Sequence record: PZ445419.1
Length of the DNA: 44,882 nucleotides
Source of the DNA: a phage
Strand: one strand, 5' to 3'
The notes beneath the pieces were generated by a model. It was not told the DNA's origin. It saw only the letters and a list, made by a program, of their open reading frames with translations, and ran no database searches. The translations under genes were made by a program, and so were the position numbers. Below, piece by piece: positions 8,881 through 39,283 of the stretch. Each line of letters opens with the position of its first letter. The stretch's first letter is position 1.

Positions 8881-9302
8881 TGAGCAATACTCTAATCCGC
8901 AAGGCGCTTAACCGCGTGGTAGAAGATTTATCGGTAAGCCTGAGCACCAGCCAGCGACCGATCCTTGTTAACTGGGAGAACGTGCAAGGGGACCACGCAA
9001 ACGGCAGCGGTGTCTACCTGGAACCATATCTGCTTCCGGCCCCTACCCAGTTTGTGGGCTTCCAGCAGAAGGGCCGGATCTATGCAGGCGTGTATCAGAT
9101 TGCCGTGGTATTTCCTGCGGGCACTGGCACACAGTATGCGAGCGAATTGGCGGACGCCATTGCGACGTCAGACAAGTGGCAGGCCGTAAGGCTTACCGGC
9201 GCTGCATTCCAGCTTCAGGACGCGCCATACACCAGTTCAGTGATTGAGGATGTTGACCGCGCCCGCATCGTGGTTACAGTGCCCTATTCCTGTTGTGCCT
9301 GA
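8880..9302 (+). CDS. tail terminator / tail completion protein (putative)
   Basis: 140-aa ORF with ATGA start/stop overlap to the upstream gene, immediately before the major tail protein. Confidence 0.45.
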   Translation: MSNTLIRKALNRVVEDLSVSLSTSQRPILVNWENVQGDHANGSGVYLEPYLLPAPTQFVGFQQKGRIYAGVYQIAVVFPAGTGTQYASELADAIATSDKWQAVRLTGAAFQLQDAPYTSSVIEDVDRARIVVTVPYSCCA

Positions 9303-9362
9303 TTTGGCGCAATTCTGCGCGTGCTGTATCATTAAACCGTATATCTAAACAGGAGCTTTATT

Positions 9363-10088
9363 ATGGGTTATCAACTTCCCAACGGGTCCAGCGTCCAGAT
9401 CGGGTCCGTATTAGGCAGCGGCATCGCGGTTACGGCAGCTACCAACGCCGCCGCGTCGATCTCCGACCTTACGCAAGGTTGCGTAATTACCTGCGCGGCT
9501 TCGCATGGTCTGGTTGTTGGCGACGTTGTTATGTTCACTAAAACCCCGTGGGTTCGAGCGCTTAACCGCGCGTTCATCGTGGGTAAAGTGGACACCAACG
9601 ACGTTACGCTGGCGCGCTTCGACACCGAAGACGTCACAAAATACCCGACCGGCGCTTTCAGCGTAGGCACTCCAGGCGAAGTGGTGAAGGTGTCGGGCTT
9701 TATCGACTTCCCTTTCATTACTAACGTTGCCGTGTCTGGTGGCGACCAGCAGACGACTACCTTCCAGCCGTTGCAGGTGAACACCGCAATCAGTCTGAAC
9801 ACCACGAAAAACCCGTTGGTACAGACTTACACTTTCACCCACGACGAAGAAGACCCGATCCGCCCAATCCTGGAAGACCTGGACGACACACAGAAAACCA
9901 CTGTGATCAAGTTCACGAACCCAGCGGCAGCAAGCGGCAAAGGTGAGATCCGTATTTACCCGGCAAAGGTATCTTTCCAGAAGATTCCTTCCGCTGAAGT
10001 AAACAACGTGGAAACGGTGCAGTCCACTCTGACCATGCAGTCTGATATGGTTATCTACCGTAAGGACCTGGTCGAGGCGTTGTCTTGA
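9363..10088 (+). CDS. major tail protein
   Basis: 241-aa ORF upstream of chaperone G/GT and tape measure; followed by a strong terminator. Confidence 0.7.
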   Translation: MGYQLPNGSSVQIGSVLGSGIAVTAATNAAASISDLTQGCVITCAASHGLVVGDVVMFTKTPWVRALNRAFIVGKVDTNDVTLARFDTEDVTKYPTGAFSVGTPGEVVKVSGFIDFPFITNVAVSGGDQQTTTFQPLQVNTAISLNTTKNPLVQTYTFTHDEEDPIRPILEDLDDTQKTTVIKFTNPAAASGKGEIRIYPAKVSFQKIPSAEVNNVETVQSTLTMQSDMVIYRKDLVEALS

Positions 10089-10118
10089 TTTGGTCGCTTA
10101 AATAGCGAGTGTTAATAT

Positions 10119-10142
10119 GGGGCCAGCAAGGCCCCTTTTTTT
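10119..10142 (+). terminator. intrinsic terminator after major tail gene
   Basis: GGGGCC-agcaa-GGCCCC followed by TTTTTTT. Confidence 0.65.
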
Positions 10143-10158
10143 ATTGGAGAATACTACA

Positions 10159-10521
10159 ATGGCTAAAGCACCACTCTTTACACTTGACCCTAAGCCGACC
10201 TTTAAGCTGCCGATTGAGATCCCGCGCCCTGGTGAGAACGAACCAGGCAAGATGACGTTTACCGTCCGCCACCGCCCTATCGACGAATTTTCGCAGACCA
10301 TGCAGGACACCGAACGCAAGTTGTCGGAGTATGACGACAATGACCCGGACGGCTTTAACGTTATGGTCGAGGCCATCATGCACGTCGCAGAAGGCTGGAA
10401 TCTGCCGGACGAATTTAACGCGGAGAACGTCCGCCGCCTGGTGGTCAACTATCCACGCGCGTTCGGTGTGTTCCACACTTCGTACTATCTCGAACTGATG
10501 GGATTGCGTGAAAAAAACTAA
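10159..10521 (+). CDS. tail assembly chaperone (G-like)
   Basis: 120-aa ORF between major tail and tape-measure genes; ATG 10159 with GGAG RBS preferred over the track start 10117, which lies inside the upstream terminator hairpin. Confidence 0.65.
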   Translation: MAKAPLFTLDPKPTFKLPIEIPRPGENEPGKMTFTVRHRPIDEFSQTMQDTERKLSEYDDNDPDGFNVMVEAIMHVAEGWNLPDEFNAENVRRLVVNYPRAFGVFHTSYYLELMGLREKN

Positions 10522-10835
10522 TTGAGGCGGCGCGACGCTTTTATGGTCCGCCGCCACCCTCCGAAGATTTAGCCGCAAGTTTATGGGGTGCGACCCCCGA
10601 AGATGTTTGTCCGCCTGTTGCGCTGTGGCCTGACAACGCGAAGATAGTCGCAGTCTTCACAGATTGCGCCACGCAATGGCGCACCGGATTTGGTGGCGCA
10701 TACGGCATCGACTACGGCGTGCTGGAGTGGTTATTTAAGATGCACGGTATCGAAAACGAGCAGCGCGCGTTTAAAGATATCAAGCTAATGGAACGAATCG
10801 CGCTTGATGAGATGGCGCAGCAGAACCCCGCATAA
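10159..10835 (+). CDS. tail assembly chaperone GT-like fusion made by -1 programmed ribosomal frameshift
   Basis: Slippery heptamer A_AAA_AAC at 10512-10518, two codons before the G stop; the -1 frame is open for 106 further codons to TAA 10833-10835 and has no ATG of its own. Confidence 0.55.
10512..10518 (+). other. -1 programmed frameshift slippery site (A AAA AAC)
   Basis: X_XXY_YYZ heptamer inside the run GAAAAAAAC at the 3' end of the G-like gene. Confidence 0.55.
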
Positions 10836-10839
10836 TGAA

Positions 10840-11156
10840 GCGGGACAGGCGGGACGTCCCGTTTTGTCCCACCCCTGTGAAACTGCATACCTACTCACTT
10901 CCATTGCATAATATAAAAGCGGGACAAGCGGGACGTCCCGTTTTGTCCCACCCCACAAAAGTGCATACGTATTCGGTTTTCGTGCATAAAACAAACGGGA
11001 CAAAAAGCGGGACAAACACTAGGCGGGACAAAGCGGGACAGCACCCCGTCCCAGCCAGTGCTGCCGCGGTTTTCAGCCGATCGGGACAGCGGGACAGCAC
11101 CCCAGTCTTTCAGACTAGACGGGGGTCAATGGCCCCCCTCGTCTGAGACTGAATAA
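10840..11156. repeat. iteron-like array of GCGGGACA repeats with GGGACGTCCC dyads, ending in a conserved 57-bp palindrome (module copy 1)
   Basis: About 13 GCGGGACA/GGGACG/TGTCCC copies at 9-12 bp spacing; an imperfect 80-bp tandem duplication (10846-10995); the last ~140 bp is homologous to 38930-39069. Confidence 0.8.
11100..11156. repeat. 57-bp palindromic element, copy 1 (identical to 39013-39069)
   Basis: CCCCAGTCTTTCAGACTAGACGGGGGTCAATGGCCCCCCTCGTCTGAGACTGAATAA; nested dyads CAGTCT/AGACTG, AGACG/CGTCT, GGGGG/CCCCC around a TCAATGG loop. Confidence 0.8.
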
Positions 11157-11219
11157 GGTTTGTTTTGAAATCGCTGATACAATATACATCGGCAACTGCA
11201 TAAAAAAGGGGACTGCATA

Positions 11220-13862
11220 ATGGCAGATCAGGCAGCAGGCATCACGCTAAAGGCTGATGTTGCACAAATCAGAACGGCAAATACTGTGCTGGACTCCTTC
11301 GCACAGAAATCCGAGAACACAGAAAACAAGGTTAAGAAATTAAACGACACCCTCGGCAAATCCAAAAAGGTGACGAGTGACGCCGCGGGCGGAATGGAAA
11401 AGCTGGCAAACGAATCGCAGCGCGCCGCCGATGGCATGACGAAACAGGAGCGACTCGCCAACAGGTTAGGGATGTCGACTAAAAACCTGGGCTTTGCCTC
11501 GCGTAACGCCGCATTCCAGCTACAGGATATTGCGGTAACGCTTGAGATGGGTATGCCGGTTCACCGCGTCATGCTTCAGCAGTTACCGCAGCTAACTGGG
11601 GCGTTCGGTGGACTGGGTAACACGCTGCGTTATGTTGCGGGCTTCCTCGGCCCAGTAGGGATCGGCCTCGCCGCCGTAACGGCAACGTTAGGCGTGGGCG
11701 TGGCAATTACGTCCCGCGCAGAGAACCAGGTCGCCGCGCTTAACAAGACGCTGGCGCTGTCAGGTAACATTTCCGGCCTGACGGCAAACCAGATCCTGGT
11801 GCTATCCGAGAACGCCGAGCGCATGGGCGGGTCGTTCCGCAAGACGCGTGACACAATCCAGGCGCTGGCGGCGGCGGGTGTGAAAGCGGGTGGTGACTTC
11901 GGCGCATTGGCTAAGGTAGTTAATGACTTTGCGAAGGTGTCCAGCCAGCCGATCGAGGATGTGGTAGCGGCGGTGGCGAAGCTGTCAACCGACCCCGTTG
12001 GCGGACTGCGTGCGCTGGCGGATAAGTATCACGTCGTAAACGAAGCGCAGATCCAGCAGGTACAGTCGCTCGTTGATGCGGGTCGTGAGACAGACGCAGT
12101 TGCGCTGGCTAACAAAACAGCCGCCGCGTCGTTTACCACTATGACCAATGAGATCAAGTCCAACATGGGTACGCTTGAGCGGTCGATGAACGTCGTTACA
12201 TCGGCAGCTAAATCTATGTGGGATGCCATCCTGGATGTCGGGCGCGCGCAGTCCTCGAATGAGTCAGAGATGAAAGCGCGTGAATCATTGCAGCGACTGA
12301 CCACGGCTTACTATGCCGAGATGAAAGCGGTAAACGCTGCCGGTGGGGTGATGACCGAAGCGCAGAAAGCGCGTATTAACATGCTTTACAGCGAACTGGT
12401 AGCCCAGGAAAAAGTAGTGGCGTCGCTCACCCTGCGCAACCGTGCCGAGCGGGACAACGCCAGCGCCGCGGACGCAGCAGCAAAGGCGAACGAAGAGGCA
12501 AACCGCACCGCCCGCGACCGCGCTGCGTTCGAGAAGGAGTACGCAACCAACGCGAAGAGGCGCGCCGACGAGATCGCCCGCCTAAATTTGCTTAATAAGC
12601 GCGGCGTGATTGACGAGAAAGAGCTTGCCGAGGCGGTGAAGCAGGTAAACGAGCGTTACAAAGACCCCGCCCCGAAGAAGGCCGCCGCTGTTCGAGTCGA
12701 TGCCGGGCTGAAAATGCTGGAAGTCGCGCGAAGCGAATTAGCCCAGCTTCGTGAGTCTGGAAAGCAGATCGAAGCCAACGCATCGACGCAGACCCGCACG
12801 CAACGCGCGCAGGCGGCCCTAAACAAGCTGATCGCGGATAATGAGCAGTTAATCGCAGCAAGCAAAGAAAGAGCACTAACGGCAGCAGAAAAGCAGCAGA
12901 TGGTCGAATTCGGACGCGTGAAGGAAGTACGCGAGCAGATCGTCGAAGAAGCCAAATTGCTGGACGCGAAAGAGAAGCAGGTCAAGGCGCACGCGCAGAT
13001 CGACGCCTTCGTTAAGAACCAGAACGCCGAGCTAAAAGCCACCGCGGCGGGATATGCGCTTTCCACTCGCGAAGCGGCTAACCTGCGCGAAGAATTGCAG
13101 CTGATTGACCGCCTTAAGCGGGTGGGTGCTAGCGATACCGATATTGATCTGGCGGTGTCTAAGCTGCGCGAAGTGCAGGAAGCACAGACCGGTGCTAACG
13201 CCTCGCTGTGGGATGGCTTCAGCCGCGGGCTTAAGGATAGCGTGGATGAAATGGGTAACGGTTACACGCAGATGACGTCACTCACAAAATTCACGTTCGG
13301 CGCTATGCAGGACACAATGAATGAGTTTTTCGAGACTGGCAAGCTGAACGCAAAAGATATGGTTAAGTCCATCCTGAGCGAATTAATCAAGCTGGCTACA
13401 TCGCAAGCATTCAAGTCCATCGTTAGCGCTTTCGGTGGCGACGGCGGCAAAAACGGATTGTTCGGCGCTATCTTCTCCGGCCTCACTAAGAATGCGGACG
13501 GCGGAGCGTACGCAGGGGGCAATCTCGCGGACTATTCGGGGCAGGTGGTAAGCCAGCCCACCTTTTTCAGTTATGGCGTACAGGCGTTCGCTAAGGGCGC
13601 AGGATTGATGGGGGAGGCCGGACCCGAGGCCATCATGCCGCTGAAGCGCGGGCCAGACGGGAAACTGGGCGTTGCCGCTGCCGGTGTAGGCGGGGGGATG
13701 ATTGTAACGACCAACGTTAACATGGGGACCGGTAAGACGGATACCAGTGTTAGCGGACCAGACCCGCGCACCGCGCAGGCGTTCGGGAAGCAAATCACCG
13801 AGTCGGTCAAGGCCGAGATCGTGAAGGCGACGAAACCGGGTGGTGTACTTTACAAACGGTGA
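11220..13862 (+). CDS. tail tape measure protein
   Basis: 880-aa ORF, Ala/Gln/Lys/Glu-rich helical composition, located after chaperone G/GT and before the distal tail genes. Confidence 0.85.
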   Translation: MADQAAGITLKADVAQIRTANTVLDSFAQKSENTENKVKKLNDTLGKSKKVTSDAAGGMEKLANESQRAADGMTKQERLANRLGMSTKNLGFASRNAAFQLQDIAVTLEMGMPVHRVMLQQLPQLTGAFGGLGNTLRYVAGFLGPVGIGLAAVTATLGVGVAITSRAENQVAALNKTLALSGNISGLTANQILVLSENAERMGGSFRKTRDTIQALAAAGVKAGGDFGALAKVVNDFAKVSSQPIEDVVAAVAKLSTDPVGGLRALADKYHVVNEAQIQQVQSLVDAGRETDAVALANKTAAASFTTMTNEIKSNMGTLERSMNVVTSAAKSMWDAILDVGRAQSSNESEMKARESLQRLTTAYYAEMKAVNAAGGVMTEAQKARINMLYSELVAQEKVVASLTLRNRAERDNASAADAAAKANEEANRTARDRAAFEKEYATNAKRRADEIARLNLLNKRGVIDEKELAEAVKQVNERYKDPAPKKAAAVRVDAGLKMLEVARSELAQLRESGKQIEANASTQTRTQRAQAALNKLIADNEQLIAASKERALTAAEKQQMVEFGRVKEVREQIVEEAKLLDAKEKQVKAHAQIDAFVKNQNAELKATAAGYALSTREAANLREELQLIDRLKRVGASDTDIDLAVSKLREVQEAQTGANASLWDGFSRGLKDSVDEMGNGYTQMTSLTKFTFGAMQDTMNEFFETGKLNAKDMVKSILSELIKLATSQAFKSIVSAFGGDGGKNGLFGAIFSGLTKNADGGAYAGGNLADYSGQVVSQPTFFSYGVQAFAKGAGLMGEAGPEAIMPLKRGPDGKLGVAAAGVGGGMIVTTNVNMGTGKTDTSVSGPDPRTAQAFGKQITESVKAEIVKATKPGGVLYKR

Positions 13863-38758: not shown

Positions 38759-38867
38759 ATTGGTTGCCTATATGGGAATCCCCATATCGCTAAACGATTA
38801 ATTTGTGCGCGAATTGGTTGCCATTTTGAGTGTTTTTATCTGGTCGCATTGGTTGCCGTGTAGCGTG
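38759..38867 (+). repeat. three direct ATTGGTTGCC motif copies in an AT-rich spacer
   Basis: Exact copies at 38759-38768, 38813-38822 and 38858-38867; the first is followed by the palindrome TATATGGG-aat-CCCCATAT. Confidence 0.7.
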
Positions 38868-38907
38868 ATTATTATGAATAGTTATGCAATAAAACTGCAT
38901 AAAGTAA

Positions 38908-39069
38908 GCGGGACAGAAAGCGGGACAGACATGGGGCGGGACAAAGCGGGACAGCACCCCCGTCCCGCCCCGGATGGCGCGGCCTGGCGTGGGGCGGGAC
39001 AAGCGGGACAAACCCCAGTCTTTCAGACTAGACGGGGGTCAATGGCCCCCCTCGTCTGAGACTGAATAA
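38908..39069. repeat. iteron-like GCGGGACA array ending in the conserved 57-bp palindrome (module copy 2)
   Basis: Six direct GCGGGACA/CGGGACA copies plus an inverted GTCCCG copy; 38930-39069 is homologous to the 3' part of 10840-11156. Confidence 0.8.
39013..39069. repeat. 57-bp palindromic element, copy 2 (identical to 11100-11156)
   Basis: Same 57-nt sequence as copy 1, base for base. Confidence 0.8.
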
Positions 39070-39224
39070 AATCCGGGGATTGCAAAATACACGGCAGCAT
39101 GAGGCGAAGTGCGGTCGCGGATGAACTTGGCAACCAATGCGGGTTGTATTATGCTGAGTGAAAAATGCGGTTTGCAGTCACAGCAGATAGCGATCAACTT
39201 TTTCATGCGCATGATTAATATTGG

Positions 39225-39253
39225 TTGCATTCGTTCCAGCACCCTGCTAGATT
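39225..39253 (+). promoter_or_regulatory. candidate promoter for the rightward small-gene operon with ATTGGTTGCA motifs
   Basis: TTGCAT-17 nt-TAGATT; motif copies at 39220-39229 and 39251-39260; leader ATTGGTTGCACACCAACAAGAGGAC closely matches the moron leader at 5217-5250. Confidence 0.45.
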
Positions 39254-39283
39254 GGTTGCACACCAACAAGAGGACTGCACAAA

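Follow-up and report, generated by a model that had tools for sequence, protein, structure and literature searches.

A predicted programmed −1 ribosomal frameshift of the lambda G/GT type in the tail region of Escherichia phage Oekolampad

The gene for a G-like tail assembly chaperone in Escherichia phage Oekolampad ends in a run of adenines directly before its stop codon, and at that point a second reading frame, displaced by −1, becomes open. Is this second frame expressed, and if so, do ribosomes enter it by slipping backwards at the end of the first? In long-tailed phages, frameshifting of the G/GT kind is textbook knowledge (Levin et al, 1993; Xu et al, 2004; as cited in PMC5009743), and the chaperones of lambda are its reference case (Levin, Hendrix & Casjens, 1993; Xu, Hendrix & Duda, 2004; as cited in PMC5313236 and PMC5009743). 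The DNA analysed here (the window) is the complete genome of Oekolampad (Bas18, genus Dhillonvirus; MZ501095.1/NC_073089.1), 44,882 bp in length, and the numbering used differs from that of the Oekolampad record by an offset of 551 bases. A megablast search with positions 9300–11300 returned Oekolampad at 100% identity over the full query, together with 157 further related records. The features discussed below are collected in Table 1.

Table 1. Features of the G/T region, in window coordinates
Feature	Position	Strand	Details
Major tail (tube) protein gene, lambda V equivalent	9363–10088	+	Phage_tail_3 7.5e-32; PHROG 584 6.6e-74
Intrinsic-terminator-like hairpin and T run	10119–10144	+	GGGGCCAGCAAGGCCCC then TTTTTTTATT; interval between tube gene and G
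G-like tail assembly chaperone gene, 120 aa, zero frame	10159–10521	+	TAA 10519–10521; Phage_TAC_4
TGA closing the −1 frame 5′ of the slip site	10509–10511	+	Confines the shift to the heptamer
Slippery heptamer A_AAA_AAC	10512–10518	+	X_XXY_YYZ register; zero-frame stop directly 3′
T-like extension, 105 codons and TAA	10518–10835	+	DUF1799; PHROG 680; −1 frame
Predicted GT fusion, 225 aa	join(10159..10518,10518..10835)	+	Ribosomal slippage
Candidate stimulating hairpin	10526–10555	+	GGCGGCG 10526–10532/CGCCGCC 10549–10555; 7-bp G+C stem, 7-nt spacer
Non-coding spacer, 384 nt, CGGGAC(A) array and strong hairpin	10836–11219	.	Interval between T and tape-measure gene
Tape-measure protein gene, 880 aa, lambda H equivalent	11220–13862	+	TMP_2 2.3e-43; PHROG 24 1e-180

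Gene order and the spacer before the tape-measure gene

Neighbouring genes were assigned with Pfam and PHROG profiles, and a tail terminator is among them. PHROG 584, which is matched by the gene upstream of G, carries the label "major tail protein", and MZ501095 annotates that gene likewise; the gene on the far side gives a second Pfam match, to Tape_meas_lam_C (7.6e-14), in addition to those listed. The order of tail tube gene, G, T and tape-measure gene is the classical V–G–T–H order. Both overlapping ORFs lie between the major tail gene (5′) and the tape-measure gene (3′), the position that characterizes the G/GT class, and a sequence-only reading of this DNA had been right to place such a frameshift relative to the tape-measure gene. 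The G product matches the Pfam family Phage_TAC_4 (PF08748) with E = 1.4e-23 and 83.9 bits against a gathering cut-off of 21.1, and the alignment is full-length, with G residues 1–120 on profile positions 1–124. A GGAG motif lies 10 nt 5′ of the G start codon (ATG 10159), and among 18 unique Dhillonvirus sequences the substitutions of the G region, counted in its own frame, are 323 synonymous to 18 non-synonymous. Terminators are annotated in the relatives CS16, MM01 and AKS96 at the site equivalent to the terminator-like hairpin upstream of G, and such a hairpin would lower chaperone expression relative to that of the tube protein.

The same reading had held that the usual downstream neighbour of the chaperone genes is displaced by repeats, and this is borne out: the tape-measure gene starts 384 nt past the T stop, and the gap carries CGGGAC(A) repeats. 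About 12 CGGGAC motifs (10–14) occur there in both orientations, ten on the + strand and two inverted. A 38-nt unit of the gap is duplicated at 10838 and 10917, and AACTGCATA-like motifs are also present, two of them just 5′ of the tape-measure ATG. In 14 Dhillonvirus relatives the gap length and the motif cores are kept, while the spacers between the motifs vary. The array probably represents binding sites for a phage DNA-binding protein, and "iteron" is a putative label for its repeats. The annotated ORF within the gap, Bas18_0018, is probably spurious.

A second CGGGACA array, of six copies, is located at 38909–39069. After it comes a near-identical copy of the hairpin segment CCCCAGTCTTTCAGACTAGACGGGGGTCAATGGCCCCCCTCGTCTGAGACTGAATAA, the segment with which the first array terminates (11100–11157); at both sites the module of array and hairpin lies 5′ of a gene start. 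Genome-wide, CGGGACA occurs 18 times with 6 expected, and 0 of 100 shuffles reached 18. Around the second array (38760–39260) there are several scattered copies of ATTGGTTGC(C/A), a possible promoter or regulator motif specific to this phage. In other phages, the interval downstream of T holds additional genes: in OP1 and Loki, T is separated from the tape-measure gene by an extra ORF, and Pseudomonas PS-1 (NC_029066.1) has annotated partition ATPase and anti-repressor genes downstream of T, with no tape-measure gene within NC_029066.1 34689–36393. Insertions into the T/tape-measure interval are thus recurrent.

The slippery heptamer and the coding −1 frame

Positions 10507–10521 read CGT GAA AAA AAC TAA in the G frame (R E K N stop), which confirms the A_AAA_AAC motif that had been proposed directly before the G stop and places it in X_XXY_YYZ register. 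The −1 frame is stop-free from 10512 to the TAA at 10833–10835, and its overlap with the G frame is exactly seven bases, namely the heptamer itself. Since the −1 frame is closed by a TGA on the 5′ side of these bases, the heptamer is the sole place where a −1 shift joins the two frames. Of the earlier description of this frame as a 106-codon stretch from 10518 to 10832, the freedom from stops up to the TAA stands, whereas the length requires correction to 105 codons (107 if counted from 10512). Heptamers of the form X_XXY_YYZ occur in register at 10 of 5862 codon positions in 17 structural genes (0.17%); with only one admissible position for the slip site, the chance of finding an in-register heptamer there is about 0.002. 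AAAAAAC is present twice on both strands of the 44.9-kb genome, compared with about 8 occurrences expected from dinucleotide shuffles, and A_AAA_AAC is identical in the 18 unique Dhillonvirus sequences.

The coding status of the −1 frame was assessed with these 18 sequences, which are 83–98% identical and align without gaps. The 103 variable sites of the T region are distributed 23/9/71 over codon positions 1/2/3 of the −1 frame, and the ratio of synonymous to non-synonymous substitutions is 246:82 in this frame, as against 53:283 and 25:313 in the other two. The T region is under purifying selection in the −1 frame and is genuinely protein-coding. Its product matches the Pfam family DUF1799 over residues 25–101 (6.1e-21) as well as PHROG 680 (1.7e-30); FYGPPPPSEDLAASLWGATPEDVCPPVALWPDNAK is an example of a peptide from this domain. 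The sequence-only reading had tied its own rejection in part to a −1 frame with neither similarity nor codon signal, and both signals are present. A comparison with T-domain sequences, which it had also suggested, gave a divided result: DUF1799 and PHROG 680 were matched, but the lambda T family was not (Pfam scan at E <= 0.1, with DUF1799 as the sole match). The T part is therefore analogous to lambda T by position, rather than demonstrably homologous to it, and its putative function is taken only from gene position and analogy.

Profiles and databases were also searched for the two parts together. PHROG 17368, a profile of 213 positions, aligns with G on positions 1–107 and with T on positions 148–212; because it spans both parts, fused G–T products already belong to a phage protein family. 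The T part was also run in a full HMMER scan against 1.84 billion cluster representatives and returned 1058 relatives, the best 150 of which are 38–150 aa long and start at scattered points of the query, with no in-frame G–T fusion among these 150. Scattered starts are the expected output of gene callers where there is no conserved start codon. A homologue search with the fused GT protein yielded two relatives, both G-only and so uninformative on fusions, and against PDB sequences the fused protein gave nothing at E <= 1.

The −1 frame had been said to have no ATG of its own. It does contain ATGs, at codons 77 (10740), 93 and 101 only, but the substance of the claim holds in that there is no usable start: the first ATG, GTG or TTG is the GTG at 10719, codon 70, within the DUF1799 domain. 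No Shine–Dalgarno sequence for separate translation of T was found in the −1 frame. As the first possible start lies inside the domain, the T domain cannot be translated alone.

The junction in relatives and its candidate stimulators

Conservation beyond the genus was examined in two samples. An IMG/VR set of 78 loci with 67 unique junctions was found largely through the junction peptide KKLIEAAR and is thus biased towards conservation of the slip site; with this biased ascertainment, AAAAAAC is present in 67 of 67 unique junctions and is followed by a stop codon in 63. Two of the loci, in G+C-rich genomes with long open alternative frames, read AAAAAAC-TGA. To obtain a sample unbiased with respect to the junction, tblastn was run with the core of T, omitting the junction residues. 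This search found 1152 phage records, from which 13 diverse GenBank records were taken, including Drexlerviridae, Pseudomonas PS-1, Xanthomonas OP1, Ralstonia and Pectobacterium phages. In all 13, T lies in the −1 frame across the end of a Phage_TAC_4-like G, and in eight a canonical heptamer is found at the G stop: A_AAA_AAC abuts the stop in IME347, IsaakIselin, MM01, F20 and BananaBelafonte, and G_GGA_AAC does so in Pseudomonas PS-1, Xanthomonas OP1 and Ralstonia YO101_2. The remaining five (Pectobacterium Ymer; Klebsiella 1513, LF20 and phiKp_7-2; E. coli AKS96) carry a non-canonical A_AAA_G or A_AAG at most one codon from the stop, and their sequence suggests slippage of a single tRNA-Lys beside the stop codon. 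The −1 arrangement is kept down to about 30% protein identity and across several types of slip site, which argues for selection on the shift itself. The five non-canonical junctions read CAA AAG TAA, GCA AAA GTY TAA, GCA AAG GTC TAA or CAA AAG CCT TAA.

Seven nucleotides 3′ of the heptamer, the G+C-rich arms listed in Table 1 form a candidate hairpin with a minimum free energy of −20 kcal/mol. Compared with dinucleotide shuffles of this G+C-rich stretch, its energy is unexceptional (z = −1.35; z = −0.06 for a 161-nt window). Comparative data speak more strongly: none of the 18 unique Dhillonvirus sequences departs from the heptamer, the spacer or the stem, and there is no covariation within the genus. 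After the heptamer, 10 of the first 12 third-codon positions are invariant, against a background of 27% (P = 7e-5); another constraint at the nucleotide level could be an alternative cause of this suppression of synonymous change at the hairpin. In the wider family, the 50 nt that follow the heptamer are more stable than control windows from the same locus in 38 of 53 members (Wilcoxon p = 2e-4), and clear stems at +7 to +9 are seen in T1-like phages and several metagenomic lineages. A perfect complement of the member's own 5′ arm is found downstream in 15 of 45 family members, compared with 11% for foreign arm variants. Because a matching arm occurs in only 15 of the 45, the hairpin is lineage-specific and not universal. 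An Rfam scan of positions 10000–11300 gave chance-level matches only, far below gathering scores. The hairpin is a plausible frameshift stimulator, and the zero-frame stop codon directly after the slip site, which is near-constant in the family, may add a further pause.

We tentatively extend this to a broader proposal, which we consider possible but rather unlikely: that the junction is a family-wide stop-adjacent cassette, in which A_AAA_AAC or G_GGA_AAC is combined with the strongly conserved KKLIEAAR stretch and lineage-specific hairpins across more than 1000 DUF1799 clusters, and in which the rate of shifting would depend not on the heptamer alone, which is intrinsically weak in E. coli, but on the stop codon beside it and the RNA that follows.

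Proposed mechanism, competing explanations and annotation

The analysis showed directly how the sequence is laid out, that the −1 frame is coding and cannot be initiated on its own, and that the arrangement is conserved. The view that this is a G–T-like chaperone pair is supported by the Phage_TAC_4 match of G, the conserved coding −1 frame and the −1 arrangement in distant homologues. We assign a probability of about 0.86 to the reading that ribosomes undergo a programmed −1 shift of the lambda G/GT type at the A_AAA_AAC site, with a predicted fusion product. According to this model, most ribosomes would terminate at the TAA of the G gene, yielding a G protein of 120 aa. On the heptamer, a small minority would slip back by one base, the tRNA-Lys paired with AAA and the tRNA-Asn paired with AAC both shifting to AAA AAA, and would continue in the −1 frame to the TAA at 10833–10835, producing a 225-aa GT protein whose C-terminal 105 residues constitute the DUF1799 domain. 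The adjacent zero-frame stop and the G+C-rich hairpin 7 nt downstream would pause the ribosome and raise the rate of shifting. By extension from lambda, G together with the G portion of GT would coat the tape-measure protein, the T part would recruit the tail tube protein, and both G and GT would end up outside the virion. We infer that the fusion is produced, that its abundance is low, and that the hairpin, the stop codon and the assembly function act as described.

The efficiency of the site may be very low, as A_AAA_AAC slips far less readily in E. coli than A_AAA_AAG does (PMC5009743). A low tendency to shift is consistent with little GT relative to G and with a dependence on helper elements. 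E. coli dnaX, the gamma/tau gene, possesses a stimulator of its own upstream, a Shine–Dalgarno-like sequence. The Oekolampad site resembles dnaX in its A-rich heptamer, its predicted −1 tandem slip and its candidate downstream stem-loop (PMC5009743), but the dnaX heptamer is A_AAA_AAG, which is far more shift-prone in E. coli than A_AAA_AAC (reviewed in PMC5009743), and the dnaX shift truncates the protein whereas the shift proposed here extends it. With lambda G/GT it shares two overlapping ORFs between the major tail and tape-measure genes, the second of them startless and in the −1 frame, an X_XXY_YYZ heptamer near the end of G, and an expected minor GT beside abundant G. It differs from lambda in having A_AAA_AAC instead of G_GGA_AAG, in a heptamer that abuts the G stop and is followed by a G+C hairpin, in a T part of the DUF1799 type and in the 384-nt repeat-filled spacer before the tape-measure gene.

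Close parallels exist with T1-like phages (Drexlerviridae; Citrobacter Stevie, E. coli U136B, IME347, IsaakIselin), which have homologous G (Phage_TAC_4) and T (DUF1799) and are annotated with a "conserved translational frameshift" (PMC4319613, PMC8104045), so that annotators already recognize the T1-like case. IME347 and IsaakIselin have an identical AAAAAAC-TAA junction, with a hairpin 6 nt downstream. However, identity over the T core is about 40–50%, the T1-like junction peptide is KKLKRAVY rather than KKLIEAAR, and T1-like T almost directly adjoins the tape-measure gene. In Acinetobacter phage vB_AbaS_Loki, AAAAAAC beside the chaperone stop has been treated as a G/GT shift site (PMC5313236). 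Its gp12/gp13 region is alike in arrangement, in that an extra element likewise separates the chaperones from the tape-measure gene (PMC5313236), but Loki has another host and belongs to another phage lineage, and what intervenes there is a gene, gp14, instead of a repeat array. Within the library of papers that was searched, none describes the frameshift for Dhillonvirus or HK578.

A fusion of G and T could also arise without any ribosomal shift if RNA polymerase stuttered on the A7 run at 10511–10517 and added one A, giving a protein with the junction ...REKKLIEAAR.... The run in Oekolampad is indeed A7 and not A6, A-rich runs are known sites of transcriptional slippage (PMC5009743), and the product would be practically identical to the ribosomal fusion. 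Nevertheless, the 67 unique homologous junctions comprise 33 runs of A6, 33 of A7 and one of A8, and some homologues have G_GGA_AAC, which contains no long homopolymer. Throughout, the heptamer stays in register with the G frame, a property that matters for tRNA re-pairing and not for polymerase stuttering, and a hairpin kept across the genus at a 7-nt spacing would be typical of a ribosomal stimulator. We therefore consider transcriptional slippage improbable. The junction peptide would separate the mechanisms: ...EKNLIEAAR is expected from tandem slippage, and ...EKKLIEAAR from P-site-only or transcriptional slippage.

Alternatively, the T-like ORF might yield a separate small protein, either by re-initiation, for example at the ATT at 10521 that lies in the T frame directly after the G stop, or from an internal start at GTG 10719 or ATG 10740. 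Databases do contain many stand-alone DUF1799 ORFs of 60–150 aa, and relatives annotate ORFs of 96–117 nt in the T region. Yet there is neither a Shine–Dalgarno sequence nor a canonical start before codon 70, a start at that codon would remove two thirds of the domain, and purifying selection extends over the entire −1 frame from the heptamer onwards. The fourth codon in homologues is ATC, ATT, ATA, AAA or others, such that no start codon is conserved, and the ORF annotated in the T region of Oekolampad itself, Bas18_0017 (96 nt, 10693–10788), is in the wrong frame relative to T. Separate expression is accordingly less probable still than polymerase slippage. That the deposited annotation ignores the −1 frame might be taken to mean that the heptamer is a chance occurrence or a decaying remnant and the frame silent. 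Against this stand the 246:82 ratio found in the −1 frame only, the presence of DUF1799-type T domains in 1152 phage records and 1058 protein clusters, the retention of the slip site to about 30% protein identity, and the chance of about 0.002 for an in-register heptamer. The substitution pattern and the distant conservation of the slip site effectively refute a chance or non-expressed frame.

A programmed ribosomal frameshift at this site would make Oekolampad G/GT an unannotated member of a well-known class, and no concept is changed by it. The GT fusion is annotated in none of the five Dhillonvirus GenBank records inspected (Oekolampad, CS16, jat, SECphi18, Opt212), in which G is labelled "hypothetical" or "chaperone" and the T region holds spurious or truncated small ORFs; in SECphi18, a 96-nt fragment is labelled "DUF1799" and the G gene "major tail protein". 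Pipelines built on PHROG assign the name "tail length tape measure protein" to G and T alike. The records could be corrected by entering the 225-aa GT protein as the join given in Table 1, with ribosomal slippage. Oekolampad belongs to the BASEL collection, and its annotation matters for proteomics, studies of defence systems and engineering; synonymous recoding or insertions at the G/T junction could abolish tail assembly. Should the family-wide cassette prove true, it would supply an extensive set of natural comparisons for work on stop-assisted −1 frameshifting in bacteria. For the biology of these phages, the finding places one further lineage under the conserved G/GT rule.
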